A stretch of 64,000 nt of DNA from an uncultured Victivallales bacterium (GTDB taxonomy: Bacteria; Verrucomicrobiota; Kiritimatiellia; UBA8416; JABMPJ01): NCBI GenBank assembly GCA_964345005.1, contig CAYFPQ010000001.1, forward strand, positions 38,751 to 102,750, given 5' to 3'. This document shows positions 14,481 to 36,941 of this stretch, in pieces; position 1 is the stretch's first letter, and every line of letters begins with the position of its first letter. The notes beneath the pieces are model-generated. The model saw nothing but the letters and a program-made list of their open reading frames with translations, made no database searches and had not been told where the DNA came from. Position numbers and translations under genes: made by a program.

Positions 14481-15201
14481 TTACACGTTGATCCTCTTTC
14501 TTTGGCCGACGTACTGTAGCTCATCGAGAAACATGACGAGTGCTGTGCCTGCTGCCGCCGCAGCCGTGCCGGCAGCTTGCAGGAGATCCTGTAGGTCATG
14601 TTCCAGATCGCCGTTGTCGGCGAGGCCCGGCTCTGGGGCGAGGTCCAGTCCCACTTCCAGATCCTGGTACTTGACCTTCAGTGCTTGTGCGAATCCAGCC
14701 AAGGCACGCAGCCCTCGCTGCGCCATGTCTCTGGCCTGTGCATGCTTGGAGAGTTTGATGAGCGCGATGCGCAGTTCAGGCGCCAGAAGGGCCGGTAACG
14801 AGCGGTTTTCCGGCGCTTCGGCCCGGATCCATGGCTGCAAGCTAGACCCTGTCCGAAAAGGGTTGGGACATCAGAAAGGGCGAATGACGGAGAGAATATC
14901 CAATATCCAACAAGGAATCTCCAATATCCAAGGTAAGACTTCGGTCGATACCGACGGAAACCGCGGAAGGTAGCGTGAAGTCCGGCAGAAGTTCCCCCCC
15001 TTGTAAATTGGATTTGAGTGTTGGCTGTTGGATATTGAGATTCCAAAGAGCGCAGATACCTTTTCGGACGACGTCTAGATAGTCGGGGTTGACGATGTGA
15101 TATAGAGGAATCTGTCGGGAGAGTTGCGCTACCAGTGTTGTCTTGCCAGACCCGTTTGGCCCGGCAAAAACTCTCAACCCAGGTATGCGCTCCGTTGTCA
15201 C
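14481..15201 (-). pseudogene. P-loop NTPase (ABC/RecF-type Walker A 'FAGPNGSGKTTL'; AAA_21-like) interrupted by a MITE insertion
   Basis: N-terminal 41 codons (15201-15079) carry the Walker A motif. The reading frame then enters MITE sequence. The C-terminal part resumes at 14840 and ends '...VMFLDELQYV...', a Walker B-like motif. Confidence 0.55.
14842..15078. mobile_element. MITE-like element, copy 1 (~237 bp; TIRs CTAGACCCTGTCCGAAAAGG / CCTTTTCGGACGACGTCTAG; arms built of 7-nt units)
   Basis: Near-identical to 36667-36908. Terminal inverted repeats of ~20 bp. Internal arms 'gaatatc caatatc caacaag gaatctc caatatc' and their complement. The track's spurious ORFs 'MESQYP(T/I)ANTQIQF...' occur in both copies. 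Confidence 0.8.
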
Positions 15202-15401
15202 CGGGGGATCTTGTAGGTGGGCTTTTTCGGTCTGACGTAGGCCTTCTCCAGTTCCATGACGGTTTCTTCGTGTCCTTCGGGCGAGCGCCGAATAATGCGT
15301 TTGCCTCGCTTGAAAGTCACGCTGAGCCCTCGTGCATATGCGTCACGTACGGCTGCGCGTGACGCTGTCTTGAATGCCTTGGCTATCTGTTGGCCTGTCA
15401 T
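15198..15401 (-). CDS. small basic protein (67 aa), translationally coupled (ATGA overlap) to the downstream P-loop NTPase; possible antitoxin-like partner
   Basis: The ORF ends 4 nt inside the ATPase start. No recognisable family. Confidence 0.35.
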   Translation of the reverse strand: MTGQQIAKAFKTASRAAVRDAYARGLSVTFKRGKRIIRRSPEGHEETVMELEKAYVRPKKPTYKIPR

Positions 15402-15652
15402 GAAGTGAACCTTAACATCGCGCTATGAGGGGTAAAGATGAAAGTGGTGTGGATTCATGTGCGAACGCCATGGGGCTTGCCTTTCGATAGCGACTGCGAT
15501 TCCTGCGATTCCGATTCCAACGAAACCGCTGGATCATACGAAGTCACTCTGCATCCTGACGAGAGTAGGCCGACCTTGTGTTTTCGAAATGCCAAAGAAA
15601 CGGAAATAACTGTGTTGCCTGTTTGCGTCTCTTATGATAGGGTGCTCCTGCG

Positions 15653-16801
15653 ATGAACGGAAGGCAACAGGGCTCGGGGAGAACGGTCATATGTCCTGGT
15701 GGTTACGAAGCGTACGTGCCGGATCCCCTTCCTCCTGAGATCGAACTCACTCCAGCCCTCCTTCGCTCGCTCTCCGATGCAGACCGCCTGCTGGGGAAGC
15801 TGGCCGGCGAGGGACGGGCGCTACGGAACCCGCATCTGCTTATGCGCCCCTTCATCAAGCAGGAGGCCGTTCTCTCAAGCCGCATTGAGGGTACGCAAGC
15901 CACACTTGGAGAGCTTCTGGCTTCCGATGCGGGGGCAACAGTGAGCAGGAGTCCTGCCGATTTGCGGGAAGTGGCGAATTACGTCACGGCCCTTGAATAT
16001 GGCATAGGCCGTCTATCTTCGCTCCCCCTGTCGCTCAGGCTTGTTGCCGAGCTTCACGGGAAACTGATGCAGGGCGTCCGAGGCGAGCAGATGACGCCGG
16101 GTGAATTCCGTCGCAGTCAGAACTGGATTGGGCCTCCGGGCTGCACGCTTCAAAATGCATCATACGTTCCGCCGCCCGTCGCGGAACTGATGTCGTGTCT
16201 GAGCGACTGGGAGACGTTCCTGCACGACCGCTCGCTCCCACCGCTGATCCAGGCGGCTCTCATGCACAGTCAGTTTGAGGCCATACACCCCTTTCTGGAT
16301 GGCAATGGTCGCGTTGGCCGGTTGTTGATCACGCTTTTCCTCGTGGAGCGGGATATTCTTCCAACGCCGCTTCTGTATCTTAGCGCTTTCTTCGAGGTCA
16401 CGCGTCGCGATTACTACGATCGACTCAATGGGGTCACCAGCAATGCAGCCTGGGAGCAATGGATTGAGTATTTCCTGAACGGCGTTGCCCGGATGTCTGA
16501 AGATGTCCTAGTGCGGGCCGAAAGAATCAACAACCTGTTCGAAGCATGGCGGAACCTGGCAGCGGGAAAGAGCAAGACCGCGCTGGAGATTCTTCACCTG
16601 CTGGAAGAGAATCCGTATTGCACGATCACAAAGACGGCAGAGAAGCTCGGAGTAGCCTTTACCACGGCTCAGCGTGGCATCGATCGCCTGGCAGCACTTG
16701 GGGTGCTGGAGCCGGTCGACGACGCAAGGCGGAATCGCGTTTTCTCTGCCCGGGAAGTCATGGATATACTGGATGCGCCTCCGGCTTTCGTTACGGCCTG
16801 A
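15653..16801 (+). CDS. Fic/Doc family protein (class II, with N-terminal inhibitory SxxxEG helix and C-terminal wHTH)
   Basis: Fic motif 'HPFLDGNGRVGR'. Inhibitory motif 'SSRIEG' upstream in the same polypeptide. 382 aa. Confidence 0.9.
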   Translation: MNGRQQGSGRTVICPGGYEAYVPDPLPPEIELTPALLRSLSDADRLLGKLAGEGRALRNPHLLMRPFIKQEAVLSSRIEGTQATLGELLASDAGATVSRSPADLREVANYVTALEYGIGRLSSLPLSLRLVAELHGKLMQGVRGEQMTPGEFRRSQNWIGPPGCTLQNASYVPPPVAELMSCLSDWETFLHDRSLPPLIQAALMHSQFEAIHPFLDGNGRVGRLLITLFLVERDILPTPLLYLSAFFEVTRRDYYDRLNGVTSNAAWEQWIEYFLNGVARMSEDVLVRAERINNLFEAWRNLAAGKSKTALEILHLLEENPYCTITKTAEKLGVAFTTAQRGIDRLAALGVLEPVDDARRNRVFSAREVMDILDAPPAFVTA

Positions 16802-16917
16802 ACGGGCGGATGTATCAGGAGACAACGATGCCGGCACTGCGGAAAAGAACTCAAATGGGTTGACGGGGCTCTTTGATGTGTTATTATCCATGTAAATAGA
16901 TTCAGGTAGAGCAAGAT

Positions 16918-18084
16918 ATGCATGGATATATAAGAAGAAGCGCTGAATCTGAGGTGTTGTCGGCTCTGGCACGATCACCTGCTGTAGCCATACTTGGGCC
17001 GAGGCAGTGTGGAAAATCCACGCTCGCAGAGCATATGTTGCGTGGAAGAGACGCCGTAAGTCTCGACCTACAGTCACGGCAGGACCTCGCCAAACTGGCG
17101 GAGCCCGAACTCTTCTTGGAGCAGCATCGGAGTCGCACGGTCTGCCTCGACGAGATTCAAAGACTCCCGGATTTCTTCACTATTCTGCGTTCTGAAATTG
17201 ATCGTGATCGTCGTCCGGGACGGTTTCTGATTCTTGGCTCTGCTTCCCGTGACCTGATCCGTCAGTCCAGCGAGACGTTGGCAGGCCGCATCGCGTATGT
17301 TCCGCTCACTCCGTTTCTGCTCCCCGAAGTGTCTTCCCGCGGCCCACTGTGGGACTTGTGGAGCCGAGGCGGTTTTCCTGAGAGTCTTCTGGCCTCGGAC
17401 GATGTGCAGAGTGCCGCCTGGCGGCGTGATTTCACGCAGACATTTCTGGAACGGGACATACCGGCCCTCGGGTTTTCGATACCGATGCCTGTCATGGATA
17501 GGCTCTGGCGACTACTTGCACACTACCATGGTCAGACGGCGAATTTCAGCAAGCTTGCCGAAGCAGCCGACATTTCCGTGCAGTCACTGCGTAAGTACCT
17601 GGCGCTTCTGGAGCAGACCTACATGTTGCGCATGTTGCCCCCCTACGAGGCGAATCTGAAGAAGCGCCTCGTGAAGGCGCCAAAACTGTACGTTAGAGAC
17701 AGCGGCGTCTTGCATTCCCTGTTGGAGATAGAGTCCTATGACCGTCTTCTTGGTCATAGCGTTGTGGGGGCATCCTGGGAGGGGTTTGCCTTGGAAAACA
17801 TCGTAGCTGGCCATCCGCTCTGGCGTTCTTCGTTTGTCAGGACGTCAAATGGCGCTGAGGTCGATCTGCTATTGGAGAGAGGGGGGATACGAAAGCTCTA
17901 CGAATTCAAGGCGTCCAAGGCGCCCAAACCTTCACGCGGTTTCCACCAACTGGTTCATGACCTCCTGCCTCAGTCTGCCGCCATTGTTGCGCCTGTCGAT
18001 GAGTCGTTTGCTATCGGGAAGGGCGTCCATGTTCTTACGTTGCTTGATGCGGTCGAAGGGCGCCGCGTGGGGCAGAGAGCTTGA
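16918..18084 (+). CDS. ATP-binding protein, AAA_14 + DUF4143 family (paralogue of 12733-13914)
   Basis: 'GPRQCGKST' ... 'VCLDEIQ' ... 'LYVRDSGVLHSLLE'. 388 aa. Confidence 0.85.
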   Translation: MHGYIRRSAESEVLSALARSPAVAILGPRQCGKSTLAEHMLRGRDAVSLDLQSRQDLAKLAEPELFLEQHRSRTVCLDEIQRLPDFFTILRSEIDRDRRPGRFLILGSASRDLIRQSSETLAGRIAYVPLTPFLLPEVSSRGPLWDLWSRGGFPESLLASDDVQSAAWRRDFTQTFLERDIPALGFSIPMPVMDRLWRLLAHYHGQTANFSKLAEAADISVQSLRKYLALLEQTYMLRMLPPYEANLKKRLVKAPKLYVRDSGVLHSLLEIESYDRLLGHSVVGASWEGFALENIVAGHPLWRSSFVRTSNGAEVDLLLERGGIRKLYEFKASKAPKPSRGFHQLVHDLLPQSAAIVAPVDESFAIGKGVHVLTLLDAVEGRRVGQRA

Positions 18085-18109
18085 CTGGGGTCATGGAGAA
18101 CGGAGTAAC

Positions 18110-19465
18110 ATGATGGGCATCAGGCAAACGATAAAGTCTCGCTTGGGGCCGCTGTGGTGGTATTCGGCGCTACAGTTTGTGTTCTCGAAAATTGAGAACT
18201 TGGTCAATCTGTTCGTCGGTGCCTTCTTGATGGTGGACTTGGTTGGCCAGGACGACCTCGGTGTAGTGGTTCCCTTCAAGATGATTATCGCTTTCGCGGC
18301 ACTGCCGATGGGCGTATTGACACGTACGGCCGTAAAGTTCATCAACGCATTCCATGTTGGCGAACAGAAGGGTGAGGTCAAGGCTCTGCTGCGGGACCTG
18401 GGTGCAGTGGCGCTGGTCCTGTCGATCTTTTCTGTCTTGGTGCTCTGGCTGGGGCAGGGGCCTTTCCAAGCGCGACTCAAGTTCGAGGATCCGCGTATCT
18501 ATTGGGTGATGGTAGCAACATTGGTGGTTTCTCTGTGGATGCCGGTGCTGGCCGTGGCGGCTCAGGGATTGATGCGCTTTCGGCATATGATCCTATCGAG
18601 CGTGGTCAGGCCACTGGTCTACCTCGTGCTGATGCTGATTCTGCTTAAGCAGTTCCAGTTAATGGGATATCTGATGGCCATGCTTGGAGCTTCATGTGCC
18701 GTGCTGCTGTATCTGCTTTGGTCGATCCGCGCGTACATCGGACCGGGAGTCAGGGCATTGAGCTATGGGGCGGAGTGGGGGCGGATTCGACGGTACGGTG
18801 TGAATGTTGGGTCCGTGACCTTGCTCCTTGGTTTCGCGGCGATCATTGAGCCGCTGACCATACGACACTTTGCATCGCGCGTCGACTCGGCCGCATACTA
18901 TGTGGCGTTCATGTTTGGGCAGATTCCTCTGTACCTGTCGGCGGCCTTCACGCCGTTTCTTTTCCCTTTGGTATCCCAGCGTTTTGAGAGAGGAGAGAAG
19001 ACGGATCATATGTTGATCCAGTCCGTGGTGGCCATGCTCGTTATCGGCGTACCTCTGCTGGTGTTCTTCATCTTTGGCGGGCGCTGGCTGTTGGGATTGC
19101 GCCTATCGTGGAGTCAATACGTGAGCTATGCTCCTCTGCTGTGGAAGATCGGTGTTGTTAGCATTCTACAGAGCCTGCTGATAGCGTTTATGGCTCATCA
19201 ACATGCGTGTAACCGGTTCCGGCACGTGCAGTGGTTTGTCGGTGTGCTCGTTCTGGAGATCGTTCTTCTCTACTTCTTCATGGGATGGCACGAGTTGCGC
19301 GGAGTGGTTCCGGGAGAGCTGTGGGAAACGGTCCAAGAAGTGGTGCAGCACAAGTTGGCGTTTGTCGTTTGGATGATGATTGGAACGAGGGCGCTGCTAA
19401 CTATGACTGCTGCATGGTGCTTCGTGAGGCAAAGACCCTTCTCCTCTACTCAGTTAATCGCGTGA
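18110..19465 (+). CDS. polysaccharide biosynthesis protein / Wzx-like flippase (MOP superfamily)
   Basis: 451 aa with ~12 predicted TM helices. Start set at the ATG directly after the preceding gene's stop; the track ORF from 17834 overlaps the upstream CDS. Confidence 0.65.
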   Translation: MMGIRQTIKSRLGPLWWYSALQFVFSKIENLVNLFVGAFLMVDLVGQDDLGVVVPFKMIIAFAALPMGVLTRTAVKFINAFHVGEQKGEVKALLRDLGAVALVLSIFSVLVLWLGQGPFQARLKFEDPRIYWVMVATLVVSLWMPVLAVAAQGLMRFRHMILSSVVRPLVYLVLMLILLKQFQLMGYLMAMLGASCAVLLYLLWSIRAYIGPGVRALSYGAEWGRIRRYGVNVGSVTLLLGFAAIIEPLTIRHFASRVDSAAYYVAFMFGQIPLYLSAAFTPFLFPLVSQRFERGEKTDHMLIQSVVAMLVIGVPLLVFFIFGGRWLLGLRLSWSQYVSYAPLLWKIGVVSILQSLLIAFMAHQHACNRFRHVQWFVGVLVLEIVLLYFFMGWHELRGVVPGELWETVQEVVQHKLAFVVWMMIGTRALLTMTAAWCFVRQRPFSSTQLIA

Positions 19466-21768
19466 GCTCGGAGCTCGGATTCGGTTCGCTCCGTGGCGGG
19501 CCCAGCTGAGTCCGACTGCATCGCTGACGGGTCAAGCGTCCACGACTGCCTCAGACGGACGCGCTTCGCATAGGGTCGGGGATGTGAGAAGTTCCAGGCA
19601 GAAACGACCTGGTTGCCGGATTGCATGCCCGGGAACCCATTGGGTTCGAACTGCCAGACTGTCATGTTCGGCAACTGAGAGCTTCCCTTGTACTTGTGCC
19701 CGGGTCTTCCGCCGGGGATCGTCTGTTGTTCTACCGTTTCCCATTCGCCGGCGGAGGTGATATCTCCCCATTTCGTCCGCAGGCAGAGGGAAACCAGGCT
19801 GCCCTGCACGGTCGGCTCAAAGTCCACTTCCCACGTATGCTTTCCGGGTAGGATATTCAGGCGTCGCACGTCGAGCCGGGCTTTCGAGTCACCCTTGGCG
19901 ATTTCGATGCCATCCAGCAAGAGGGCGTACTTGCCCCGCATATGGAACCCAATCAGCGCATGGCTCTCATCCTCGTGGAGCCAGATTAGATCCTTCGCTT
20001 GTCGGGCTGCCGGCGTGTAGCTGCTAGAGGAGATTTGCTCCAGTGTGGGGCGGATGGATTCGAATCCGTTAGCCCTCTCCCTATAGGCTGCAGCACGCAG
20101 GCGCAACAGGTCTGCCCACGGATAGCGGGCGTAGCGCGCTGCGAAGAAGTCGCATCGCGTCGCCGCATCAGCCCACAGGCCTTCTCGCTCAAGCGTGAAG
20201 AGCATAGCCATCAGCCCCGGGAGTTCGAACCGGTCGGCCGGGCGCCTGAGCAGCGGCTCTTGGTTGGCTGGTAATGTGCAATCTTGAGGTGTGTCCGCAT
20301 ACCAGTACGACACGCTTGAAAGGTATCCCTGGGCTCGGTGGCGATCCCCAAACTCGATCCCCACCGTAAGCGAATCTTCGAAATCAACTGCGTCGAGCCC
20401 GTGGAAGCGGTACTGGTCGGTTCGCATGGCGCCCTTTTCGATCAGCCCGTGGTAAGGGAGATCGAAAAGGCTGGTGTAGTAGTAGGCGCCGTTGAAGTAG
20501 TCCTCGAGACCGGTACCAAATTGTCCCGGCTGCTTGCCTTCGTCCGGGAGCACGAATTCGTCTCCTTCGAGGATGGTCCACGATCCATCCTGGCCAATGG
20601 CAGTGAGATAGCAGCCGATGTAGTGACCAGAGGATTTGGCAGTGCACAGCGTGAATGGCCGGCCGGATGTCGCAGATGCGGCCCAGTTTGCATGGAAGTA
20701 CCGGGCTGATGCAGAAGGTTCCGCATCGGAAACGTTCACGGCTGCCTCCACGCGCACGGGAACGGCCCCGTAGTTAGCCAACCCTACGCGCGCTCCCTGG
20801 TGGAAAGGCATGGGAAAGCGACAGAGAAACGTGTCGTTGAGACGGGCAAGAGGAAAAGCGGCAAACTCGCGGGTATAGAAGGCATTGCAGAAGAAATCGC
20901 CGATGGGAACATCCATGCTGGGACGCTGTTCTCCGTCCCACCACGCTTGCAGGCGGATGTTACGAAGTAAGGCGTGTTTGAGCTGATCGCGCGGGGATGG
21001 ATCGGCAATACGAAGCACCATGGATGTGATACTACCCGAACCGGTATGGTCGGAGACGACGGTACTTGCCCCAGGCTGAAGCGTATGGGTCTGGCCAGGG
21101 CTTTCACTGGACAGGGAAAGCATGGTCTGTCGGTCCTTTTCGAGTGCAGTGCTGGCCGCCACGATGGCGTTGCTCTGCGCTGGGGAGAGAGTGCTGGGCC
21201 AGGACTGAGCTGTCATGCTCGAGTCTGTCAGCGTATAGTTGATATGGAAGTAATTGCGGTCATTAATCTGCAGACGGGAAGGCTCCATCTCGATGCGAAG
21301 GCTCTTGGCGAACGGGATGGGAACCGTACAGAATCTCCCTCCGCCCGACTTGCCTGCAAGGGGACCGAGGAATGGGAACTCACCCCCAAACATCTCTTTG
21401 AGCGTCGGCGTTAGACGAGGCGTGGATTCACCGTCAAAGAAGAAGAACAGGCGTTTGGCATAGAATGTAGCGACCCAGATGCGCGAAATATAGCCGGGTC
21501 CATCTAAGTCCAAGATCGTTACCCGCCCACTTGAGTTTGTGCCGGACCAAACAGCCCAGTCCCTGTTGCCACCGGACCGGTCGTAAGAAGATTCAAGAAA
21601 TGATTCTCCGAGCGGTCGCTCGGAAAAAACATCAGGATTGGCCATTCGCATCACGAGCGACTCGACCGTCACGGGAACGTCCGGGGGTGGCGTTGGGCGG
21701 CGGCAGGAGGCGACCAAGGCGGCGAGAAGAATGGATAGGGCTAGAGTGGTGACACGCGGCGTCTTCAT
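19450..21768 (-). CDS. DUF2961 (glycoside hydrolase family 172-like) secreted lipoprotein
   Basis: 772 aa. Signal/lipobox 'LLAALVASC'. DUF2961 core segments such as '...GDFFCNAFY...' and 'GTGLEDYFNGAYYY'. Confidence 0.75.
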   Translation of the reverse strand: MKTPRVTTLALSILLAALVASCRRPTPPPDVPVTVESLVMRMANPDVFSERPLGESFLESSYDRSGGNRDWAVWSGTNSSGRVTILDLDGPGYISRIWVATFYAKRLFFFFDGESTPRLTPTLKEMFGGEFPFLGPLAGKSGGGRFCTVPIPFAKSLRIEMEPSRLQINDRNYFHINYTLTDSSMTAQSWPSTLSPAQSNAIVAASTALEKDRQTMLSLSSESPGQTHTLQPGASTVVSDHTGSGSITSMVLRIADPSPRDQLKHALLRNIRLQAWWDGEQRPSMDVPIGDFFCNAFYTREFAAFPLARLNDTFLCRFPMPFHQGARVGLANYGAVPVRVEAAVNVSDAEPSASARYFHANWAASATSGRPFTLCTAKSSGHYIGCYLTAIGQDGSWTILEGDEFVLPDEGKQPGQFGTGLEDYFNGAYYYTSLFDLPYHGLIEKGAMRTDQYRFHGLDAVDFEDSLTVGIEFGDRHRAQGYLSSVSYWYADTPQDCTLPANQEPLLRRPADRFELPGLMAMLFTLEREGLWADAATRCDFFAARYARYPWADLLRLRAAAYRERANGFESIRPTLEQISSSSYTPAARQAKDLIWLHEDESHALIGFHMRGKYALLLDGIEIAKGDSKARLDVRRLNILPGKHTWEVDFEPTVQGSLVSLCLRTKWGDITSAGEWETVEQQTIPGGRPGHKYKGSSQLPNMTVWQFEPNGFPGMQSGNQVVSAWNFSHPRPYAKRVRLRQSWTLDPSAMQSDSAGPATERTESELRAHAIN

Positions 21769-21897: not shown

Positions 21898-25311
<3,414 letters not shown>

Positions 25312-25379: not shown

Positions 25380-25575
25380 GTGGGGCTGTGGGACGGGGGA
25401 GGTCAAGGATGGGGAGGAGGTCGAAGGCCGGAAGCCGGAAGCCGGAAGCCGGAAGTCGGAGGGCGGAGATCGGAATGGCCCCAGGCATTCTGCTTGGGTT
25501 ATGATCCTCCGTCGCCCTGTGGGCTATGGAGGACTCGTGTGCGACTCCTTTGGGGTGCGGGGGAGGATGACCTGT
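25380..25575. repeat. composite dispersed repeat containing an (RGYCGGA)8 heptamer array (25419-25475)
   Basis: 'ggtcgaa ggccgga agccgga agccgga agccgga agtcgga gggcgga gatcgga'. Flanks match 7932-7955 and 27880-27900 ('cctttggggtgcgg'). Confidence 0.7.
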
Positions 25576-26679: not shown

Positions 26680-27798
26680 ATGAATCCATTCAAGTATGGG
26701 CAAGTTGTGCGTGGACGCGATTTCTGCCCGCGTCCGGAGTTACAAACGGCTCTTGCGAGTCATGTGGAGTCACGGCAGAACGTCCACGTGACAGGAGAGC
26801 GACGCACTGGGAAGACGTCGCTTATTCTTGAAACAGTTTCGAAACTGAAGCTGTCTCTCATTCACGTCGACCTGTTTCAGGTTAAGTCGACGCATGACGT
26901 GTACATGAGGATGCTTGACGGGGTTCTCACCCACAACACTTCGACCGCTTTCGTCAAGAGGTTGATGCAGGGCATCGCTTCGTTGAGGCCGACCATGAGT
27001 TACGACCAAGTCTCGGGAGCGCCCTCCATCAGTATTGCCCCTTCTGAGAACGTCATGCCGGCAACCGTTGTTGGATTGCTCGATTTCATCAGAGAGAAGC
27101 TGGGCCAACGTGGGCTGGTGGTCTTTATCGATGAGTTCCAGGATGTGACCGAGCTGAAAGAAAAGGATGAGATGCTCGCGCTGATGAGAAGTCGAATCCA
27201 GTTACATGCGGATATCACCTATGTCTATGCCGGAAGCGTCAGAAGACGGATGGATGACATTTTCTACAATCCGGACAGCCCTTTCTACAAATCGGCCCTT
27301 CCCGTTAAGGTGGAGAGTCTCAACAGCCTGACATTCAGCAACTATCTGATGCAGCGCTTTGCATCCGGAGGAAGACCCGTTTCCGGTGAGATCATTGAAC
27401 AGATATTCGATCTGACTCATTCGAATCCCGGTGATGTTCAAGAACTCTGTAACGCGTTATGGGATGTGACGGCTGATGAGTCGGCCATTCGCGACGATGA
27501 CGTTGGCCGGGCAGTTATGGAGATCTTCATCAGGGAGAAGCCCTATTACGAACAGGTTGTCAGCGCGATCAGCGATACTCAGCTCAGGTTTCTGCGGGGA
27601 TTGGCTGAATTCGATGGCAAGCAGATCTACTCCAGAGCATTTCTTGAGTACACGGGAATCAAGCAGCCTGCGTCTGTTACGCGTGCGCTCAAGCGAATGG
27701 TGGATCTCAAAGTCGTCTATACCTATGGCAAGCAACACAAGTTCGCCAGCCCGTTCTTCCGGCTGTGGCTGCTCGACGCCGTAGGGGGCAAGTCTTGA
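26680..27798 (+). CDS. AAA ATPase of the PF01637 ('archaeal ATPase') type with C-terminal DUF234
   Basis: Walker A 'GERRTGKTS', Walker B 'VVFIDEFQ', C-terminal '...KFASPFFRLWLLD' DUF234 signature. Preceded by an AT-rich promoter-like region at 26580-26680. Confidence 0.8.
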   Translation: MNPFKYGQVVRGRDFCPRPELQTALASHVESRQNVHVTGERRTGKTSLILETVSKLKLSLIHVDLFQVKSTHDVYMRMLDGVLTHNTSTAFVKRLMQGIASLRPTMSYDQVSGAPSISIAPSENVMPATVVGLLDFIREKLGQRGLVVFIDEFQDVTELKEKDEMLALMRSRIQLHADITYVYAGSVRRRMDDIFYNPDSPFYKSALPVKVESLNSLTFSNYLMQRFASGGRPVSGEIIEQIFDLTHSNPGDVQELCNALWDVTADESAIRDDDVGRAVMEIFIREKPYYEQVVSAISDTQLRFLRGLAEFDGKQIYSRAFLEYTGIKQPASVTRALKRMVDLKVVYTYGKQHKFASPFFRLWLLDAVGGKS

Positions 27799-29668: not shown

Positions 29669-29693
29669 GGCGGGACTGTATAATAAGGGATAC

Positions 29694-29721
29694 AGAAGTC
29701 GGAAGTCAGAAGTCGCAAGAA
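29694..29721. repeat. heptanucleotide tandem array (AGAAGTC GGAAGTC AGAAGTC GCAAGAA) in the divergent rsmD/yceD promoter region
   Basis: Direct reading of the sequence. Intergenic, between divergently transcribed genes. Confidence 0.7.
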
Positions 29722-29766
29722 CGCTTTCCCTTGCCGGGAATTGGGCGGGCGCGGTAGATTGAAGGC

Positions 29767-30231
29767 ATGGAAGCGATCATCATTGCGCGGCTGCCCGAGG
29801 AGGGCGAGCAGTTCAAGGGCGAGGATCCGCCAGAGGTTCTGGAGGTGCAGCCGGACGATGCGGTGGTTTCGGTGGGACCACTGCGCTATGACCTCACGGC
29901 GACACCGCTGATGGGGGATGAGCTGCTGGTGAGGGGAAATGTTCGGTGTGAAGTCGTCTTCCGATGCTCCCGCTGTGCTGCAGAGTTCGCCCGGGAGGTG
30001 GCCGAAGACCCCTATGTGCGGTCCTACGAACTGCACGATGAAACCGAATCTGTGGACTTGACCCCCGATATGCGTGAGGCTACACTCCTCGCCTTTCCTG
30101 CATACCCGGTGTGCGATTCGGACTGTTTGGGACTATGTTCGAAGTGTGGGAAGGACCTGAACGAGGGCCCGTGTGAGTGCGTCCCTGAACCGGATGCGCG
30201 TTGGGACCAGCTCAGGGGTTTAGAGCTTTAG
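29767..30231 (+). CDS. yceD: YceD/DUF177 family protein (23S rRNA accumulation / large-subunit assembly)
   Basis: 154 aa. Cys cluster 'CSRCAAEF...CDSDCLGLCSKCGKDLNEGPCEC'. Conserved position directly upstream of rpmF. Confidence 0.8.
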   Translation: MEAIIIARLPEEGEQFKGEDPPEVLEVQPDDAVVSVGPLRYDLTATPLMGDELLVRGNVRCEVVFRCSRCAAEFAREVAEDPYVRSYELHDETESVDLTPDMREATLLAFPAYPVCDSDCLGLCSKCGKDLNEGPCECVPEPDARWDQLRGLEL

Positions 30232-30240
30232 GGGGAAAAC

Positions 30241-30423
30241 ATGGCAGTACCGAAAAGAAAGTCATCGAAAAGCAAGATTCGTACACGCAGGGCGTCTCAT
30301 AAGACGACTGTGAATCCTGCCAAGCCCTGCCCTGAGTGTGGCGCTGCACAGCAGCCGCACCGCGCCTGTCCGTCCTGCGGTTACTATCGCGGCCGACAGG
30401 TTGTCTCAGTTTCGGCAGAGTAG
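30241..30423 (+). CDS. rpmF: 50S ribosomal protein L32
   Basis: 'MAVPKRKSSKSKIRTRRA...CPECGAAQQPHRACPSCGYY'. 60 aa. Confidence 0.9.
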   Translation: MAVPKRKSSKSKIRTRRASHKTTVNPAKPCPECGAAQQPHRACPSCGYYRGRQVVSVSAE

Positions 30424-30469
30424 CTGAATCGGATCCAGGAGTGCCCGAGACAGGGACACTTCGCGTTAA

Positions 30470-30495
30470 CCCAGGGCGATAGCCCTGGGTTTTCC
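30470..30495 (+). terminator. putative intrinsic terminator/attenuator after rpmF (CCCAGGG-loop-CCCTGGG + TTTTCC)
   Basis: 7-bp GC stem followed by a T-run. plsX follows 45 nt downstream, so termination may be partial. Confidence 0.45.
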
Positions 30496-30539
30496 ATAGG
30501 TTGGCAGAAGCGCCACGGGGCGCGGGAGAGACAACTCGC

Positions 30540-31547
30540 ATGCGAATTGCGGTAGATGCCATGGGAGGGGATCATGCCCCCCGCGAGATCGTACGAGGCG
30601 CAGTGGATGCGGCCCGGCGACTGGAGGGAGTGACCCAGATACTCCTGGTTGGAATCGAGGACGCCGTACGTGCGGAGCTGTCCGAGCTAAGCAGTATTCC
30701 TTCGAAGATCGAGGTCGTCCATGCCTCCGAAGTAGTGGATATGGACGAGAAGCCCGTTGAAGCGTTGCGCCGCAAGAAGGACTCCTCCATTGCACGGGCC
30801 GTCGATCTCGTCAAGAAGGGCGACGCCGATGCTGTTGTTTCTGCCGGAAACACCGGTGCGGTCATGGTGTCGGCGACACTCCGGCTCCGTAAGCTCGAAG
30901 CCGTGGAACGTCCCGCCATTGCCACGGTCATGCCGACCCGTAATCGACCTTTCGTATTGCTCGATGCCGGGGCGAACACGGACTGCACGCCGAAGTTCCT
31001 GGCCCAGTTTGGCGTTATGGGGCAGGTCTACTCGCGGCTGATCCTCGGCCAGGAGAACCCCATCGTTGGGTTGCTCAGCATCGGTGGCGAGGAGGTCAAG
31101 GGCAACGATATGACCCGCGAAACCTTCAAGCTTCTCTCCGATTCCGGTCTCAACTTTCGGGGCAATGTCGAGGGACATGACCTCTTCGAGGGCGAGACTG
31201 ACGTGGTCGTGTGCGATGGCTTCGTTGGCAACGTGGTTCTCAAAACCGCCGAGAGCGTGAGCATGGCCATTGGCCATTGGCTGAAGAAGGAGTTTAAGAA
31301 GAATCCGATCCGAATGCTGGGTGCAGTGCTTCTCGGTGGTGCACTCCGCACGATGAAGAAGAAACTGGATCCCGAAAGCTATGGTGGCGCACCGTTGCTC
31401 GGCGTGAACGGCGTGTGTATCATCACACACGGTTCGTCGAGCGCCCGGGCAATTTACCATGCCATTCGCGTCGCAAAGGACTCGGTCGTGGGCCATCTGA
31501 ATGACGCGATTGTGGAGAAGATCAAGGCTTTGGACGGCAGGCTGTAG
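30540..31547 (+). CDS. plsX: phosphate acyltransferase PlsX
   Basis: 'MRIAVDAMGGDHAPREIVRGA...' is the canonical PlsX N-terminus. The ATG at 30540 is preferred over the track's upstream start. Confidence 0.9.
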   Translation: MRIAVDAMGGDHAPREIVRGAVDAARRLEGVTQILLVGIEDAVRAELSELSSIPSKIEVVHASEVVDMDEKPVEALRRKKDSSIARAVDLVKKGDADAVVSAGNTGAVMVSATLRLRKLEAVERPAIATVMPTRNRPFVLLDAGANTDCTPKFLAQFGVMGQVYSRLILGQENPIVGLLSIGGEEVKGNDMTRETFKLLSDSGLNFRGNVEGHDLFEGETDVVVCDGFVGNVVLKTAESVSMAIGHWLKKEFKKNPIRMLGAVLLGGALRTMKKKLDPESYGGAPLLGVNGVCIITHGSSSARAIYHAIRVAKDSVVGHLNDAIVEKIKALDGRL

Positions 31548-31594
31548 AGGATTAGCCGCGAAAGAGCGCAGCGAACGCAAAGAAAGAAGATTAC

Positions 31595-32581
31595 ATGACA
31601 CGCGCAGTCAGGATATCAGGTACCGGTTCTTATCTTCCCGAGAAGGTTCTGACCAATTACGACCTCGAGAAGATGGTCGATACGACGCATGAGTGGATTC
31701 ATACGCGGTCGGGTATCTCCGAGCGTCACATTGCGGCGGAAGGCGAGGCAACGTCGCATATGTCTGCCGTGGCGGCAAGGAACGCTCTCGATGAGGCGGG
31801 AATCAAGGCCGAAGAGCTGGACATGATCATCGTCGGCACGATTACGCCTGACATGGTCTTCCCCAATACGGCGTGCTTTGTGCAGGACCAGATCGGGGCC
31901 AAGAACGCCTTCTGTTTCGATGTCGAGGCCGCATGCTCCGGCTTTCTCTACTCGATAGACATCGCCCGTAACTACATCTCCAACGGTTCGGCAAACAACG
32001 TCCTTGTTATCGGAGCCGAAAAGCTGAGCAGCATTACGGACTGGGAAGATCGCGCTACCTGTGTCCTGTTTGGCGATGGCGCCGGTGCGGTGGTGCTGAG
32101 TGCTGCCGAAGAAGGGCAGCGCGGCATCATGGGAACGGTCATGGGGTCGGACGGCAGCCTGAACGAATTGCTCAACGTGCCCGGAGGCGGCAGCCGTCAT
32201 CCCGCATCGCACCAGACGATCGACGATCGGATGCACTACATGAAGATGACGGGGCGCGAGGTATTCAAGCACGCGGTCCGTTGCATGTCGGACGCGGCCG
32301 TTACAGTGCTGGAGAAGGCGGGGCTGACGGTAGATGATGTCGCCTGCATCATCCCGCACCAGGCCAATGCCCGCATCATCAACGCGATTGCCTCCCGTCT
32401 CGGCACCGAAGACGGTAAGGTCTATATGAATCTGGAACGCGTGGGCAACATGTCGGCGGCGTCTGTGCCCGTTGCGCTGGACGAAGCCGTTCGTTCCGGT
32501 CGGATCAAGCGTGGCGATGTCGTGCTGTTTGTGGTGTTTGGCGGTGGATTCACGTGGGGGGCGTCGGTCCTTGAATGGTAG
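31595..32581 (+). CDS. fabH: 3-oxoacyl-ACP synthase III
   Basis: Active-site 'EAACSGFLY', 'HQAN', 'GNMSAASVP'. 328 aa. Confidence 0.9.
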   Translation: MTRAVRISGTGSYLPEKVLTNYDLEKMVDTTHEWIHTRSGISERHIAAEGEATSHMSAVAARNALDEAGIKAEELDMIIVGTITPDMVFPNTACFVQDQIGAKNAFCFDVEAACSGFLYSIDIARNYISNGSANNVLVIGAEKLSSITDWEDRATCVLFGDGAGAVVLSAAEEGQRGIMGTVMGSDGSLNELLNVPGGGSRHPASHQTIDDRMHYMKMTGREVFKHAVRCMSDAAVTVLEKAGLTVDDVACIIPHQANARIINAIASRLGTEDGKVYMNLERVGNMSAASVPVALDEAVRSGRIKRGDVVLFVVFGGGFTWGASVLEW

Positions 32582-32798
32582 AGCCGCTCCGGCCCGGGGG
32601 AAGGTCCTCCGCCCGGCCGTCCCGGAATACCGGGCCGCCAAGGAGCGGGTGACCTTCCCCCGGGCCTCCGCTGGGGGTAGGTAGGTCCCTGGTGAGGTCG
32701 GAAGGCCTCCGCTGGGGGTACTACCTTTCTGCGGGTGTGGGGGGTATAGGGGGGTATGGAGAATAGGCGCGGCGGAGGGCCGCACGGGGAGTGAGAGT
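32582..32798. repeat. repetitive GC-rich intergenic insert between fabH and fabD (direct repeat of CCTCCGCTGGGGGTA, 2 copies)
   Basis: 'ggcctccgctgggggtaggtagg...ggcctccgctgggggtactacc'. Spacers this long are unusual inside fab operons. Confidence 0.5.
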
Positions 32799-33710
32799 AT
32801 GAGTGCTGCATTGATTTTCTCGGGCCAGGGCGCCCAGTCGGTGGGAATGGGTAAGGATCTGGCGGACAAGTATCCGGTTTGCGCCGATCTCTATGCCAAG
32901 GCAGATGAGGTCATTGGCTACGAGCTGTCGAAGATTTGCTTTGAAGGGCCGGACGAGGAACTGACGAAGTCGAATCATTGCCAGCCGGCCATCTTCGTCA
33001 CAAGCGTGGCATGTGCCAAGGCGCTGGAGGCTGAGGGCGTGGGGCCCCAGGCTGTCGCCATGGCTGGTCTGAGTCTGGGCGAGTGGACTGCGCTGCACAT
33101 GGCAGGCGTGTTGAGCTTTGAGGACACGGTCAAGGTGCTTGAGGCGCGTGGTCGTTTCATGCAGGAGGCTTGCGATGAGCAGGCGGGCGGTATGGTCAGC
33201 ATCATTGGGCTCTCACGTGAACAGCTTGACGGTATCTGCGCCGAAGCGGGCGTGACAGTAGCGAATCTCAACTCGTCGGCCCAGACGGTGTTGTCGGGGC
33301 CGAAAGCGGGAATCGAGAAGGCTGAAGCGTTCGCCACAGAGGCAGGCGCGAAGCGGGCGATCATCCTGAACGTGGCTGGGGCGTTCCACTCGCCACTGAT
33401 GGCCTCAGCCGCGACCAAGCTGGACGAAGTGTTGGCCGGTGTCACTTTCAATGAGCCGACTGTCCCCGTATTGTCTAATGTCATGGGTGAGCCGCATGCA
33501 GGCGCGGACGCGATCCGGGCCAATATGGTCCGCCAGGTGACGGACTCGGTCTTATGGCTGTCGTGCGTTGAGTGGATGCAGGCGCAGGGCGTGAACCGGT
33601 ACGTCGAGTGTGGACCAGGCAGGGTTCTGACGGGGCTGATCAAGCGGATTGCGGCCGGTGCCACGCTGCAAAACGTGAATGATGTCGCGTCGGCGCTCCG
33701 GCTAAGGTAA
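32799..33710 (+). CDS. fabD: malonyl CoA-ACP transacylase
   Basis: 'GLSLGEWTALHMAG' contains the GxSxG active site. 303 aa. Confidence 0.9.
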   Translation: MSAALIFSGQGAQSVGMGKDLADKYPVCADLYAKADEVIGYELSKICFEGPDEELTKSNHCQPAIFVTSVACAKALEAEGVGPQAVAMAGLSLGEWTALHMAGVLSFEDTVKVLEARGRFMQEACDEQAGGMVSIIGLSREQLDGICAEAGVTVANLNSSAQTVLSGPKAGIEKAEAFATEAGAKRAIILNVAGAFHSPLMASAATKLDEVLAGVTFNEPTVPVLSNVMGEPHAGADAIRANMVRQVTDSVLWLSCVEWMQAQGVNRYVECGPGRVLTGLIKRIAAGATLQNVNDVASALRLR

Positions 33711-33789
33711 GCCATTCTTGGCTGGAGATCGCGGAATACCGCGCTCAAAGGCCTGCGAAGGGCTCACCTTAGCCTTCGCTTGGGGTAGG

Positions 33790-33950
33790 TTGAAGGCACG
33801 GCACAGACATACCCAATGACGAAATGCCCAAAGAAACCAAGCAGCGAAATGCGAAACATGCGGTGTGCTTTCGTCCGGGCTTCGTCATTCGTCATTCCTT
33901 GGGTATTCGGGTACTTGGGTGTTTCGTCATTTCCGAGTCCTTAGCATAGC
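33790..33950. repeat. palindromic element with 7-nt-unit arms (ATGACGA AATGCCC ... / ...TCGTCAT TCGTCAT TCCTTGG) between fabD and fabG
   Basis: Left arm 'cccaatgacgaaatgcccaaagaaaccaagcagcgaaatgcgaaac', right arm 'ttcgtcattcgtcattccttgggtattcgggtacttgggtgtttcgtcatttc'. The arms are inverted, complementary and 7-nt periodic. Confidence 0.6.
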
Positions 33951-34023
33951 GTGTAGAGTCTGATGTGGTTTACCCCAGCATTCACTGGGGGATGGGGTAG
34001 ATGATAGGGGAAGGAGTGAGGAA

Positions 34024-34767
34024 ATGGGTGCGTTAGACGGTAAGGTTGCGATAGTGACGGGTGCAGCGCGCGGAATCGGCGCGGCGATCGCGGTTCGCCT
34101 GGCGAACGAAGGCTCGGATATTGCGCTGTGCGATCTTCAGGAGGACTGGCTGACGGAAACGGCCGAGGCCGTGAAGGCGGCGGGTCGTGACGTGGGGTGT
34201 TTTGGCGTGGATGTCAGCGACTCGGACGGCGTCAATGGGGTGGTCGAGAAGGTGGTGTCGGCACATGGCGGCGTCGATATACTGGTCAACAATGCGGGGA
34301 TCACACGCGACACGCTGATGATGCGAATGTCGGACGAAGATTGGGATGCGGTCCTGAACGTGAATCTGAAGGGAACCTTCCTGTTCACGCGTGCCGTAGC
34401 TCGCCCGATGATGAAGAAAAAGGCCGGTACAGTGGTCAATATCGCATCGATTATTGGCTTGATAGGTAATGCCGGTCAGTGTAACTATTCGGCGTCAAAG
34501 GCCGGGGTTATAGCACTCACGAAGTCCTCAGCGAAGGAGATGGCCTCGCGAAACATCCGCGTAAATGCGGTTGCACCGGGCTTCATACAGTCGAAAATGA
34601 CCGACGCATTGTCGGAGGACATTCGGGACAAGATGCTGGGGGCTATTCCGATGAAGCGTTTCGGAACTCCGGAAGACGTGGCAGATGTTGTAGTGTTCCT
34701 CGCGGGGGATACGTCCGGCTATATGACTGGGCAGGTTTTGACCGTGAGTGGCGGAATGGTAATGTAG
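34024..34767 (+). CDS. fabG: 3-oxoacyl-ACP reductase
   Basis: 'VTGAARGIG' ... 'NAG' ... 'YSASKAG' SDR catalytic motifs. 247 aa. Confidence 0.9.
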
Positions 34768-34794
34768 AGTCCAACCTATAGAAGGAGAAGTAAC

Positions 34795-35034
34795 ATGGCT
34801 CTTGAGGACAAAGTAAAAGAGATCATCGTGGAACAGCTCGGCGTTAACGCCGACCAGGTTACCGCCGAGGCCTCGTTCATTGAGGATCTGGGTGCCGACT
34901 CGCTCGATACGGTCGAGCTGGTTATGGCGTTCGAAGAAGAGTTCGGTGCCGAGATTCCGGATGAGGACGCTGAGAAGCTCACGAGCGTGGGTGCTGTCCT
35001 CAGCTACCTGAAGGAAAAGGGCTTTGACGCCTAA
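34795..35034 (+). CDS. acpP: acyl carrier protein
   Basis: '[20 protein letters not shown]' contains the phosphopantetheine-attachment Ser. Confidence 0.9.
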
Positions 35035-35052
35035 AGGCTTGAGGTGATCGTA

Positions 35053-35095
35053 ACCGGGAGGACCCAGTGATGGTTCTCCCGGTTATTTCATTTCT
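35053..35095 (+). terminator. intrinsic terminator after acpP (AACCGGGAG-loop-CTCCCGGTT + T-rich tail)
   Basis: 9-bp perfect stem at 35053-35061 / 35076-35084 followed by TATTTCATTT. Confidence 0.6.
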
Positions 35096-35149
35096 GGGTA
35101 CTTGCGGGCTTCATGACGTGGGAGATGTAAGGCCCGGTTCGCTGCAATG

Positions 35150-35292
35150 CAGCAAGAACATCGAACATCGAACAAGGAACATCCAACGCAGAACTGAACG
35201 AGTCTTGAGGATAAGCGGTTGTCAGGCCGACTATTCGCCGACTCTCGCAGCGTTGGATGTTGGGAGTTCCTTGTTGGCTGTTGGATGTTCAA
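35150..35292. repeat. palindromic MITE-related element with 7-nt-unit arms (gaacatc gaacatc gaacaag gaacatc caacgc / complement)
   Basis: Arms at 35153-35189 and 35249-35290 are reverse complements. They share the CCAACAAGGAA core with the MITE arms but have a different central segment. Confidence 0.65.
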
Positions 35293-35366
35293 AGCAGTGA
35301 GACTGGCGCGCACTTAAGCAGCAGTACAGTGCGCTGACTGGTGTTGATGAAGGAAAGGGCGTAACG

Positions 35367-36599
35367 ATGAGACGAGTAGTCATTACGGGGCTGGGTGTTG
35401 TTTCTCCTCTTGGCTGTGACCTGTCGACGGTGTGGCAGAAGTTGCAGGCAGGGGAATCGGGCATTGGCCCAATCACGAAGTTCGACGCGACGGACTTCGA
35501 TAGCAAGATCGCTGGTGAAGTGTCCGATTTCGATCCGAGCGTGGCAATCGATCGCAAGGCCATGCGTCGCATGGACGAGTTTTCGATCTTCGCCATGGCA
35601 GCGGCCAAGTCGGCCGTTGAGGATTCCGGCGTCGATTTCTCGGCGGAAGATCCAACCCGTATGGGCGTGATTGTCTCCTCCGGTATCGGTGGGCTGAGAA
35701 CTCTTGAAGTACAGGCCAAGAGCATGCTGGAGCGCGGTCCGGGCCGCTGTTCCCCGTTCATGATCCCGCAGATGATCATCAACATGGCGGGTGGCCTGAT
35801 TGCCATCGAGTACGGCTGTCAGGGCCCCAACTACGCAGTGGTTACAGCCTGTGCCTCGGCTTCACACGGCCTCGGTCTCTCCATGCAGAGCATTCAGCGC
35901 GGTGAAGCCGACGTGATCATCAGCGGAGGCAGCGAGGCCTCGGTTACCACGCTGGGCGTGGGCGGTTTCTGTGCGATGAGGGCGCTGAGTACGCGGAACG
36001 ACGATCCTACGGCGGCGAGCCGTCCGTTCGACGTTGACCGTAACGGTTTCGTTATCGCCGATGGTGGCGCTATCATTATCCTCGAGGAACTTGAGCACGC
36101 CAAGGCGCGCGGCGCCAAGATCTACTGCGAGCTGGCGGGCTTTGGCATGACCTGCGACGCCTACCACATAACGGCGCCAACCGAGAGTGGTGATGGCGCT
36201 GCGCGCGCCATGAAGATGGCGATGGATAGCGCCGACGTAGCACCGGCGGACGTCAGCTACATCAACGCGCACGGTACGAGCACGCAGCTCAATGACGTCA
36301 TGGAAACAGCGGCCATCCGCGGGGCGCTGGGCGATGCAGCGGATAACGTGATGGTGAGCTCAACGAAATCGATGACCGGACACATGCTCGGTGCAGCGGG
36401 AGGGTTCGAAGCTGCGGTCGTAAGCCTGGCGCTGCGTGACCAGGTGGTGCCGCCGACAATCAATCACAAGCAGCCCGATCCGAAATGCGATCTCGACTAC
36501 GTTCCGAACGAGGCGCGTGAGGCGGCCGTGAACGTCTGTCTGAGCAACTCGCTGGGATTCGGTGGCCACAACGCCTGTCTGGCCTTCAAGAAGATTTAG
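35367..36599 (+). CDS. fabF: 3-oxoacyl-ACP synthase II
   Basis: 'VVTACASASHGLG' active Cys region, 'NAHGTST', 'SNSLGFGGHNACL'. 410 aa. Confidence 0.9.
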   Translation: MRRVVITGLGVVSPLGCDLSTVWQKLQAGESGIGPITKFDATDFDSKIAGEVSDFDPSVAIDRKAMRRMDEFSIFAMAAAKSAVEDSGVDFSAEDPTRMGVIVSSGIGGLRTLEVQAKSMLERGPGRCSPFMIPQMIINMAGGLIAIEYGCQGPNYAVVTACASASHGLGLSMQSIQRGEADVIISGGSEASVTTLGVGGFCAMRALSTRNDDPTAASRPFDVDRNGFVIADGGAIIILEELEHAKARGAKIYCELAGFGMTCDAYHITAPTESGDGAARAMKMAMDSADVAPADVSYINAHGTSTQLNDVMETAAIRGALGDAADNVMVSSTKSMTGHMLGAAGGFEAAVVSLALRDQVVPPTINHKQPDPKCDLDYVPNEAREAAVNVCLSNSLGFGGHNACLAFKKI

Positions 36600-36620
36600 A
36601 GGCAGGAAAGACTGCCATGC

Positions 36621-36941
36621 TTGCGGCTCGCTGGGGACAGCTCGCCCTACCTGGCATTCGATGTGTCTAGATCGACCCTGTCCGAAAAGGGTTGGGACAT
36701 CAGAAAGGGCGAATGACGGAGAGAATATCCAATATCCAACAAGGAATCTCCAATATCCAAGGTAAGACTTCGGTCGATACCGACGGAAACCGCGGAAGGT
36801 AGCGTGAAGTCCGGCAGAAGTTCCCCCCCTTGTAAATTGGATTTGAGTGTTGGCTATTGGATATTGAGATTCCAAAGAGCGCAGATACCTTTTCGGACGA
36901 CGTCTAGATCGTGGCTGGGGTAGCTCTCCGAGCGAGCCGTG
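36621..36941. repeat. REP-like hairpin element (GGCTCGCTGGGGACAGCTCGCCCTACCT family) split by a nested MITE insertion
   Basis: Left arm at 36624-36651. A degenerate right arm ('ggctggggtagctctccgagcgagcc') resumes at 36910 after the MITE. Confidence 0.55.
36667..36908. mobile_element. MITE-like element, copy 2 (near-identical to 14842-15078)
   Basis: More than 97% identity over ~235 bp and the same TIRs (…CTAGA[TCG]ACCCTGTCCGAAAAGG … CCTTTTCGGACGACGTCTAGAT). Confidence 0.8.

Follow-up and report, generated by a model that had tools for sequence, protein, structure and literature searches.

The window, i.e., the whole 64-kb stretch of DNA from an uncultured Victivallales bacterium (Kiritimatiellia) analysed here, carries two copies of a 229-bp repeat. 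Copy 1 lies between two gene remnants in a toxin-antitoxin/defence-type patch with two AAA_14/DUF4143 ATPases, HicB, and Fic. Copy 2 is located between fabF (35367-36599) and a gene for a CsgG-like lipoprotein (36963-37889, minus strand), which are convergent. We consider it probable that the repeat is a non-autonomous DNA transposon, i.e., a MITE (miniature inverted-repeat transposable element) of a family in Kiritimatiellia and other bacteria of the Planctomycetes-Verrucomicrobia-Chlamydiae (PVC) group, that its transposition was very recent, and that copy 1 is a recombination hybrid. The parts of the two copies, including their terminal inverted repeats (TIRs), are:

14846-15074, plus strand: MITE copy 1, 229 bp, ACCCTGTCCG…CGGACGACGT, 228/229 identical to copy 2
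36675-36903, plus strand: MITE copy 2, 229 bp, oriented as copy 1
14846-14861, plus strand: left TIR of copy 1, ACCCTGTCCGAAAAGG
15059-15074: right TIR of copy 1, CCTTTTCGGACGACGT, 13/16 complementary to the left TIR
36675-36690 and 36888-36903: TIRs of copy 2, same as those of copy 1
36667-36674 and again 36904-36911, plus strand: target-site duplication of copy 2, CTAGATCG, direct repeat 8/8
14838-14845 (CAAGCTAG, left) and 15075-15082 (CTAGATAG, right), plus strand: flanking 8-mers of copy 1, matching at 6/8
14893-14933 (left) and 14999-15036 (right), plus strand: arms of copy 1, about five degenerate heptamers (AATATCC CAACAAG …), period 7 in Tandem Repeats Finder (TRF)
36722-36762 and 36828-36865: arms of copy 2, same as those of copy 1

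In the alignment, the two copies differ at a single position over 229 bp (G15027 versus A36856). Alignment and repeat finder agree that homology drops abruptly at both element ends and that the flanks share no similarity. The ends are sharp in both copies, and it is the TIRs, and not the arms, that mark the exact limit of similarity. These results confirm the two near-identical repeats described in the first-pass annotation of this DNA, which had also named extended flanking homology as the mark of a mere segmental duplication; the flanks are unrelated. Both left junctions recur in independent contigs from other samples (ENA metagenome project PRJEB17505) and are thus not assembly artefacts: contig L001 is identical to the copy-2 locus across the left junction and the first 181 nt of the element, and contig L006 covers the left junction of copy 1 with 873/874 identical positions. 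Neither contig extends through the element, and the right junctions are not covered by them; L001 breaks off precisely at the one position where the copies differ. With L028 and L029, contigs from four assemblies end inside the element, as expected of a multicopy repeat in de Bruijn assembly.

We defined the termini by comparing four end pairs, those of the two window copies and those of homologous elements on contigs L013 and L024 (see below). When the ends are placed at ACCCTG…GACGT, copy 2 loses the seeming 4-nt indel of its left tip. The conserved termini (window, ACCCTGTCCGAAAAGG/ACGTCGTCCGAAAAGG; L013, AGCCTGTCAGGCAAGG/AGTCTGTCCGCAAAGG; L024, AGCCCGTCCGAAAGG) yield an imperfect 16-bp TIR with the consensus A-S-Y-C-Y-GTCCG-M-AAAGG, i.e., A[CG][CT]C[CT]GTCCG[AC]AAAGG, a motif found within the window only at the element ends. 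An earlier parse, with a TA, CTAG, or CTAGA duplication and a 4-nt indel in copy 2 (CTAGA-TCGA-CCCTG), was replaced by an 8-bp duplication after this comparison. The duplication is perfect at copy 2, and the 8-mers flanking the L013 element (CAAGTTAG/CAAGTGAG) form a direct repeat at 7/8 positions. Since the same 8-mers, taken as inverted repeats, agree at only 4/8 (copy 2) and 3/8 (L013) positions, they represent duplications and not extensions of the TIRs. All six flanking 8-mers (CAAGCTAG, CTAGATAG, CTAGATCG, CAAGTTAG, CAAGTGAG, and CTACGTCG) fit C-W-A-G/C-N-T-A/C-G. This target consensus, CWAGNTMG, resembles the palindrome CTAGCTAG, and its near-palindromic nature explains why CTAG is found at every end of the window copies. 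It also accounts for a seemingly common TGCAAG left flank of copy 1 and the L013 element. The predicted empty site of copy 2 reads …GTGTCTAGATCGTGGC….

The inverted termini of the first-pass annotation therefore stand, but at 16 bp instead of 20 bp: the outer CTAG(A) is host target DNA, and the boundaries drawn there took in host bases. At copy 1, the CTAG on the right contains the CTA that codes for Leu42; since this leucine is conserved among the zeta-like proteins, the CTAG is host sequence and not part of the TIR. The same annotation had called for a search for target-site duplications, and this search succeeded at copy 2 (8 bp, perfect) and gave only the 6/8 match at copy 1.

From the ends inward, the element consists of the 16-bp TIRs, two poorly conserved spacers, two inverted arms of CAACANC-like heptamers, and a centre of about 65 nt. 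The whole of it folds into one long imperfect hairpin (-82 kcal/mol; z -3.8 and -4.8 for the two strands), and its GC content is about 50%. One reading frame is open from end to end, and no similar protein was found for it among 5.8 billion clusters. The other frames, searched as a concatenated query, matched only P0153, a spurious 186-aa open reading frame (ORF) on a homologous element of the JGI contig L013. The element has no coding capacity, as had been proposed from the letters alone. Rfam 15 gave no match in the window at the gathering threshold, and at E<10 the element itself gave a single 13-bit match that is attributable to chance. The surroundings of the two copies showed no promoter-like or terminator-like sites.

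The P0153 match led from the ORF on L013 to elements outside the window. L013 carries a 381-bp homologue and contigs L024-L030 a 216-bp homologue, both in a radical-SAM/TauE intergenic region that is unrelated to the window loci. The radical-SAM gene next to the L013 element belongs to a 90% cluster from metagenome-assembled genomes (MAGs) labelled Lentisphaerae or Verrucomicrobiota. The 216-bp element is colinear with the window element over its full length (74% identity over 243 columns). The presence of full-length homologues at an unrelated locus in other MAGs points to a dispersed family, most likely of MITEs. Compared with L013, the proximal half of the L024 element is 75% identical, whereas its distal half and flank are 92% identical, and 24 nt of flank, including one copy of the duplication, are absent. 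The L024 8-mers CGACGTAG and CTAACTTG do not match (4/8), and this element thereby repeats the hybrid-flank signature of copy 1 described below.

An IS30-like integrase gene (HTH_38 and rve domains) lies just upstream of the radical-SAM gene (L028:1096-2076, L029:91-1071, L024:1353-2231). We rejected it as a transposase partner, as its borders show neither matching TIRs nor similarity to the MITE ends. Near the integrase gene, L028 has a stretch at about 880-960 that is tRNA-like by eye only.

Copy 1 is flanked by two gene remnants:

15076-15201, minus strand: remnant of a zeta-toxin/AAA_33-like P-loop protein, codons 1-42; tblastn aligns only aa 1-40/42 of a family of about 245 aa
14502-14831, minus strand: internal remnant of an AAA_16/AAA_22 "ATP-binding protein", aa 73-182, truncated at both ends (ORF 14481-14840)

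In a full-library search, the 41 N-terminal residues on the right are 60-69% identical, from residue 1, to proteins of about 245 aa (P0134, P0137, P0140, and P0141) that match Pfam Zeta_toxin and AAA_33. When the ORF parts of both flanks were joined and used in tblastn, homologues aligned only to the left-flank part, with 70-73% identity. These homologues are AAA_16/AAA_22 "ATP-binding proteins" that have their Walker A motif about 50 residues from the N-terminus, and the window's 41 N-terminal codons agree with them only in the generic GxxGxGKT motif. The ORF called for the zeta-like stub runs on through the element to a stop at 14842. Of the 119-aa "proteins" called at copy 1, one is thus a stub continued by translation of the element and the other a piece from the interior of a gene. 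The two flanking frames are offset by one base. Since the element and one duplication together measure 229+8 = 237 nt, i.e., 79 codons, no excision can fuse the flanks.

The first-pass annotation had seen here a single P-loop ATPase gene inactivated by insertion and had suggested aligning both flanks to an uninterrupted orthologue. No such single gene emerges from these alignments: as judged by their homologues, the flanks come from two unrelated genes, a Zeta_toxin/AAA_33 protein and an AAA_16 ATPase, and copy 1 marks a rearrangement junction. The remaining part of neither gene was found in the window by tblastn. The flanks represent two genes, and the 8-mers of copy 1 disagree at just those two positions that vary in the target consensus; a hybrid origin of copy 1, by homologous recombination between two directly oriented copies, is therefore probable.

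Several further observations concern this locus. A 67-aa ORF without Pfam or NCBIfam match (15198-15401, minus strand) shares 4 nt (ATGA) with the start of the zeta-like remnant and may encode an antitoxin that was left without its toxin when that gene was truncated. A second palindromic repeat family with tandem units of 10-12 nt (GAGGATYAATGTGTARGAG…GTATGG … CCGTACT…TACACGTYRATCCTC) is present at 14420-14496 and 41377-41459. Its copy at 14420-14496 adjoins the 3' end at which the AAA_16 remnant is truncated (homology stops at 14502), so that this fragment is bracketed by small palindromic elements, the repeat on one side and MITE copy 1 on the other. The AAA_16 "ATP-binding protein" family is 56-78% identical across distant phyla (labels Planctomycetaceae, Opitutaceae, and Pseudomonadota), and many of its database members are short or C-terminally scrambled, which suggests a horizontally mobile and often degraded gene. 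The ATPase_2/AAA_22 gene at 26680-27798, considered as an intact paralogue of the remnant, is not a paralogue.

Copy 2 is inserted into another palindromic structure, a pair of repetitive extragenic palindromic (REP) sequences:

36621-36652 (left arm) and 36912-36941 (diverged right arm), plus strand: GTAG-tagged REP pair hosting copy 2 (repeat finder, folding)

The element sits in the loop of this inverted pair. The window contains three copies of GCGGCTCGCTGGGGACAGCTCGCCCTACCT as inverted pairs, in which each unit is an imperfect palindrome with GTAG on its inner side. Two uninterrupted relatives of the host pair lie at 40077-40165 and 53608-53696, and the three pairs are found downstream of fabF (36621-36652/36912-36941), glmM (40077-40165), and thiI (53608-53696). 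When the element and one duplication are taken out, what remains at copy 2 forms a hairpin of -46.8 kcal/mol whose loop measures 22 nt, and the intact pairs fold likewise (-52.5 and -76.9 kcal/mol). Folding and intact relatives both bear out the nesting of copy 2 in a REP hairpin that had been noticed from the sequence. REPs serve as targets of insertion sequences (ISs). The host hairpin and the pairs at 40077 and 53608 fit the GTAG-tagged REP class, in which imperfect palindromes preceded by GTAG pair up in inverted orientation downstream of genes (Di Nocera et al. 2013, PMC3733652).

Prokaryotic MITEs are typically shorter than 500 bp, have TIRs of about 4-30 bp and, in young copies, flanking direct repeats, and encode no transposase (PMC10969869). 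Further marks of MITEs are several dispersed copies in a genome, empty sites in some relatives, and a cognate autonomous IS with matching TIRs that provides the transposase in trans. The window element is 229 bp long and its homologues 216 and 381 bp. Its TIRs measure 16 bp (13/16 complementary) and have homologous counterparts in L013 and L024, direct repeats flank copy 2 (8/8) and the L013 element (7/8), and nothing is encoded. These features support the TIR-bounded, non-coding MITE of the first-pass annotation. Like Correia/CREE elements of Neisseria, ERIC, RUP, and Nezha, the element folds into a long hairpin, occupies intergenic as well as intragenic sites, and is linked to gene disruption and rearrangement (PMC10969869). 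It differs from them in being GC-rich (about 50%) instead of AT-rich, in an 8-bp duplication of CWAGNTMG instead of TA, in tandem-heptamer arms that are better conserved than the TIRs, in having no parent IS that we could find, and in its uncultured Kiritimatiellia host.

The 8-bp duplication at a near-palindromic target points to a staggered-cut (DDE-type) transposase that acts in trans. Such an enzyme, encoded elsewhere, would bind the element ends and make 8-bp staggered cuts at CWAGNTMG (ideally about CTAGCTAG), and repair of these cuts would generate the duplication. IS families with 8-bp duplications include IS1595, ISL3, IS256, IS66, IS6, ISAs1, and IS982. With one difference in 229 positions, both window copies would stem from very recent transposition. 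Copy 2 would represent a simple insertion into the loop of the REP pair downstream of fabF. For copy 1, we infer a longer history: one copy may have inserted into the zeta-toxin-like gene and another, in the same orientation, into the AAA_16 ATPase gene, and homologous recombination between the two would have deleted the intervening DNA and left a single copy at the junction.

Several results weigh against this interpretation. A clean duplication is present at only two of the four loci (copy 2, 8/8, and L013, 7/8, versus 6/8 at copy 1 and 4/8 in L024), and the mismatches of the latter two are explained by assuming hybrid flanks. At the radical-SAM locus, all seven contigs are occupied, with two different alleles and no empty site. 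We found no empty-site allele at the two window loci either, where relatives are too diverged. The window FabF is 92% identical to a protein named [Kiritimatiellae bacterium] from a common 90% cluster, and the fabF-csgG regions of relatives (FabF identity 88-92%) cannot be aligned at the copy-2 site, each having a hairpin of short tandem units of its own. An AAA_16 gene adjoining a zeta-like gene, which would support the deletion model, was not found in L031 or L032. The copy count is two in the 64-kb window, to which the count for the source genome is limited. Finally, the TIRs are less conserved across lineages than the heptad arms, which is odd if the TIRs are the sole functional part.

The search for a partner transposase adds to these points. 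Among the larger ORFs of the window, Pfam scans detected no transposase. The genome and metagenome scans used exact words of the window element, chosen before the diverged relatives were known, and their negative results are weak evidence. The exact left-end 19-mer gave one chance match, inside a Desulfatiglandales ORF, in 185,579 representative genomes, and an exact 22-mer gave none in the JGI metagenomes. Exact-word scans of viral contigs, equally narrow, returned nothing or chance matches in coding sequences, and blastn against plasmids and phages returned nothing significant. The first-pass annotation had made the mobility of the element depend on target-site duplications and on a transposase gene with matching TIRs; the former exists at copy 2, but these narrow exact-word searches revealed no autonomous IS of the latter kind. 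Matches to the TIR-pair pattern in JGI contigs were discarded, since L003 contains another type of TIR element and the matches in L004 and L005 are due to chance. The L003 element (L003:12705-12965) is an unrelated repeat of about 245 bp with long near-perfect TIRs (CCATTGGTCGYCYGAGGGTCCGAAAAGGTTCA) that has only the searched 11-mer in common with the window element, and it is probably a different MITE.

The strongest alternative places the heptamer arms, and not the TIRs, at the centre. These arms had been described as built of 7-nt units, and TRF bears this out with a period of 7. Their core CCAACAAGGAA has eight matches versus 0.78 expected, and two related structures outside the element are:

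35156-35290, plus strand: heptad-arm hairpin without TIR shell, between acpP and fabF
11009-11046, plus strand: single heptad arm, in frame in an ORF for a YfhO-like membrane protein (…NENTEQPTRNTQLPTNG…), 88% complementary to 35251-35290

Both had been listed as related elements, together with a half-copy at 54910-54940 that proved weak (70%). The acpP-fabF hairpin is also present in L009-L012 (FabF identity 92%) and absent in L007 and L008. Its arms in L009-L011, i.e., in another genus, are 92-93% identical to the arms of the element. Between the window element and L024, the arms are the best conserved part (90%), ahead of the centre (72%), the TIRs (56-75%), and the spacers (about 30%). The element is thus a TIR shell around a hairpin module with an independent existence.

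Because the arms also occur without the shell, we reserve a small share of probability for the hairpin as the primary unit. In this alternative, the hairpin itself would be the mobile or functional unit, similar to REPINs (paired REPs) or to short tandemly repeated repetitive (STRR) sequences, spread by an HUH/RAYT-type enzyme or by templating during replication or repair, and the TIR shell would be one of its carriers. At least 15 period-7 arrays in the window, many of them paired as hairpin arms, the single in-frame arm, and the palindrome nested within a palindrome at copy 2 are in line with this explanation. We nevertheless regard it as unlikely. Similarity between the window copies stops at the TIRs instead of the arms, and the shell is flanked by 8-bp direct duplications, whereas transposition of the HUH type produces none. 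No RAYT or TnpA gene was detected in the window by Pfam scans of the larger ORFs. The 229-bp element also differs from GTAG-REPs and REPINs in its far larger size, its TIRs and target duplications, and the lack of any GTAG/CGTC tag logic.

A broader version of the hairpin explanation carries slightly more weight, although it too is doubtful: the heptamer-array hairpin could be an undescribed self-propagating or host-recruited palindromic module of Kiritimatiellia or the PVC group, for which the MITE is one vehicle. Equally tentative is the corresponding mechanism, in which the 7-nt units would be recognised by a specific protein, or hairpins would arise and spread by virtue of the tandem register. 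That the arms are shared with non-TIR hairpins at a housekeeping locus hints at a candidate sequence-specific binding factor. Cyanobacteria contain the heptanucleotide repeats STRR1-3, e.g., CAACAGT. The scattered 7-nt tandem arrays of the window are similar to these, and the unit CAACAGC/CAACATC resembles STRR3, but here the phylum is a different one and the arrays are typically paired as inverted hairpin arms. For Kiritimatiellia, we found no report of repeats such as the 229-bp element in the literature.

Less probable still is that the MITE-like repeat is a structured element in the service of the host and not currently mobile. It could serve as a hairpin at the 3' end of RNAs (terminator or stabiliser) or as an array to which proteins bind, and recombination or gene conversion would have produced its copies. 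Its very stable fold is compatible with such a role, as is the location of copy 2 and of the L013 and L024 homologues directly downstream of genes. Moreover, a 34-nt block with the arm sequence AAATTGGATTTGAGTGTTGGCTGTTGGATATTGA is identical in the window element and L013, which are elsewhere only about 75% identical. However, no such role is evident for copy 1, which has a dead gene fragment on either side. The element matches no Rfam family and lacks terminator-like T-runs. The conserved base pairs are invariant among the homologues and thus have no covariation support, and TIRs together with a target duplication are hallmarks of transposition.

An alternative that keeps the 20-bp TIRs of the first-pass annotation, i.e., an IS630/Tc1-mariner-like (or IS5-like) MITE with TIRs starting from CTAG, the TA within CTAG as target, and a duplication of 2-5 bp, is very improbable. 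IS630 elements target CTAG and duplicate TA, and CTAG does occur at both ends of both window copies. However, four extra bases separate the left CTAG of copy 2 from the shared sequence, which only an 8-bp duplication explains, and at copy 1, the CTAG on the right belongs to the coding part of the zeta-like gene. The junctions of L013 and L024 (CAAGTTAG, CAAGTGAG, and CGACGTAG) contain neither TA nor CTAG. Over the four loci, the flanks adjacent to the junctions end in …ATCG, …TTAG, or …CTAG and begin with CTAG…, CAAG…, or CTAC…, and no TA duplication abuts the TIRs. A segmental duplication or assembly artefact has next to no probability, as nothing beyond the existence of two copies speaks for it, the flanks show no relationship up to the very ends of the element, and each left junction recurs in independent assemblies from other samples.

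If the repeat is a MITE, it belongs to an otherwise ordinary class of selfish DNA, but it would represent the first MITE family described for Kiritimatiellia, a poorly studied and mostly uncultured PVC lineage, and has a defined 8-bp target consensus. The element breaks metagenome assemblies, and since it flags rearrangement junctions, it is useful for MAG curation and pseudogene annotation.

The window is unusually rich in period-7 arrays, which differ in their units (GAGATCA, CGGAAGT, AACACCC, GCCGGAA, TAGGCTG, ACCTTGA, and others) and are found at 8960-8983, 10564-10596, 11009-11046, 12546-12570, 25416-25475, 29387-29420/29695-29719, 35156-35289, 37990-38085, 44591-44622, and 54921-40. In the spacer that separates the csgG-like gene from its neighbour, the array at 37990-38085 forms a (TAGGCTG)n/(CCTACAG)n hairpin, and analogous hairpins of other units lie downstream of fabF in L007 and L009. 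Three arrays are located within the YfhO-like ORF (9908-12589, 893 aa) and leave its frame intact (10564-10596, 11009-11046, and 12546-12570) and encode the low-complexity sequences …GGGQKSEVGGL…, …NENTEQPTRNTQLPTNG…, and …AEAGGPRSEVEAEK, in a manner resembling Rickettsia palindromic elements (RPEs). The in-frame arm at 11009-11046 and the frame that is open through the whole element are both reminiscent of RPEs and other intragenic MITEs (PMC10969869), although the YfhO-like ORF contains only a half-element. The region 8874-9081 combines 65 nt similar to the 5' end of the YfhO-like gene (9952-10016, 91%), a heptamer array, and 62 nt similar to the adjacent downstream region of that gene (12592-12653, 73%); this arrangement suggests a second gene copy that has lost its interior. 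A purine-rich 38-nt repeat, GATTAGCCGCGAAAGAGCGCAGCGAACGCAAAGAAAGA, is present in two intergenic regions (31550-31587 and 53537-53574, 84% identical), and L007 has a motif resembling it downstream of fabF.

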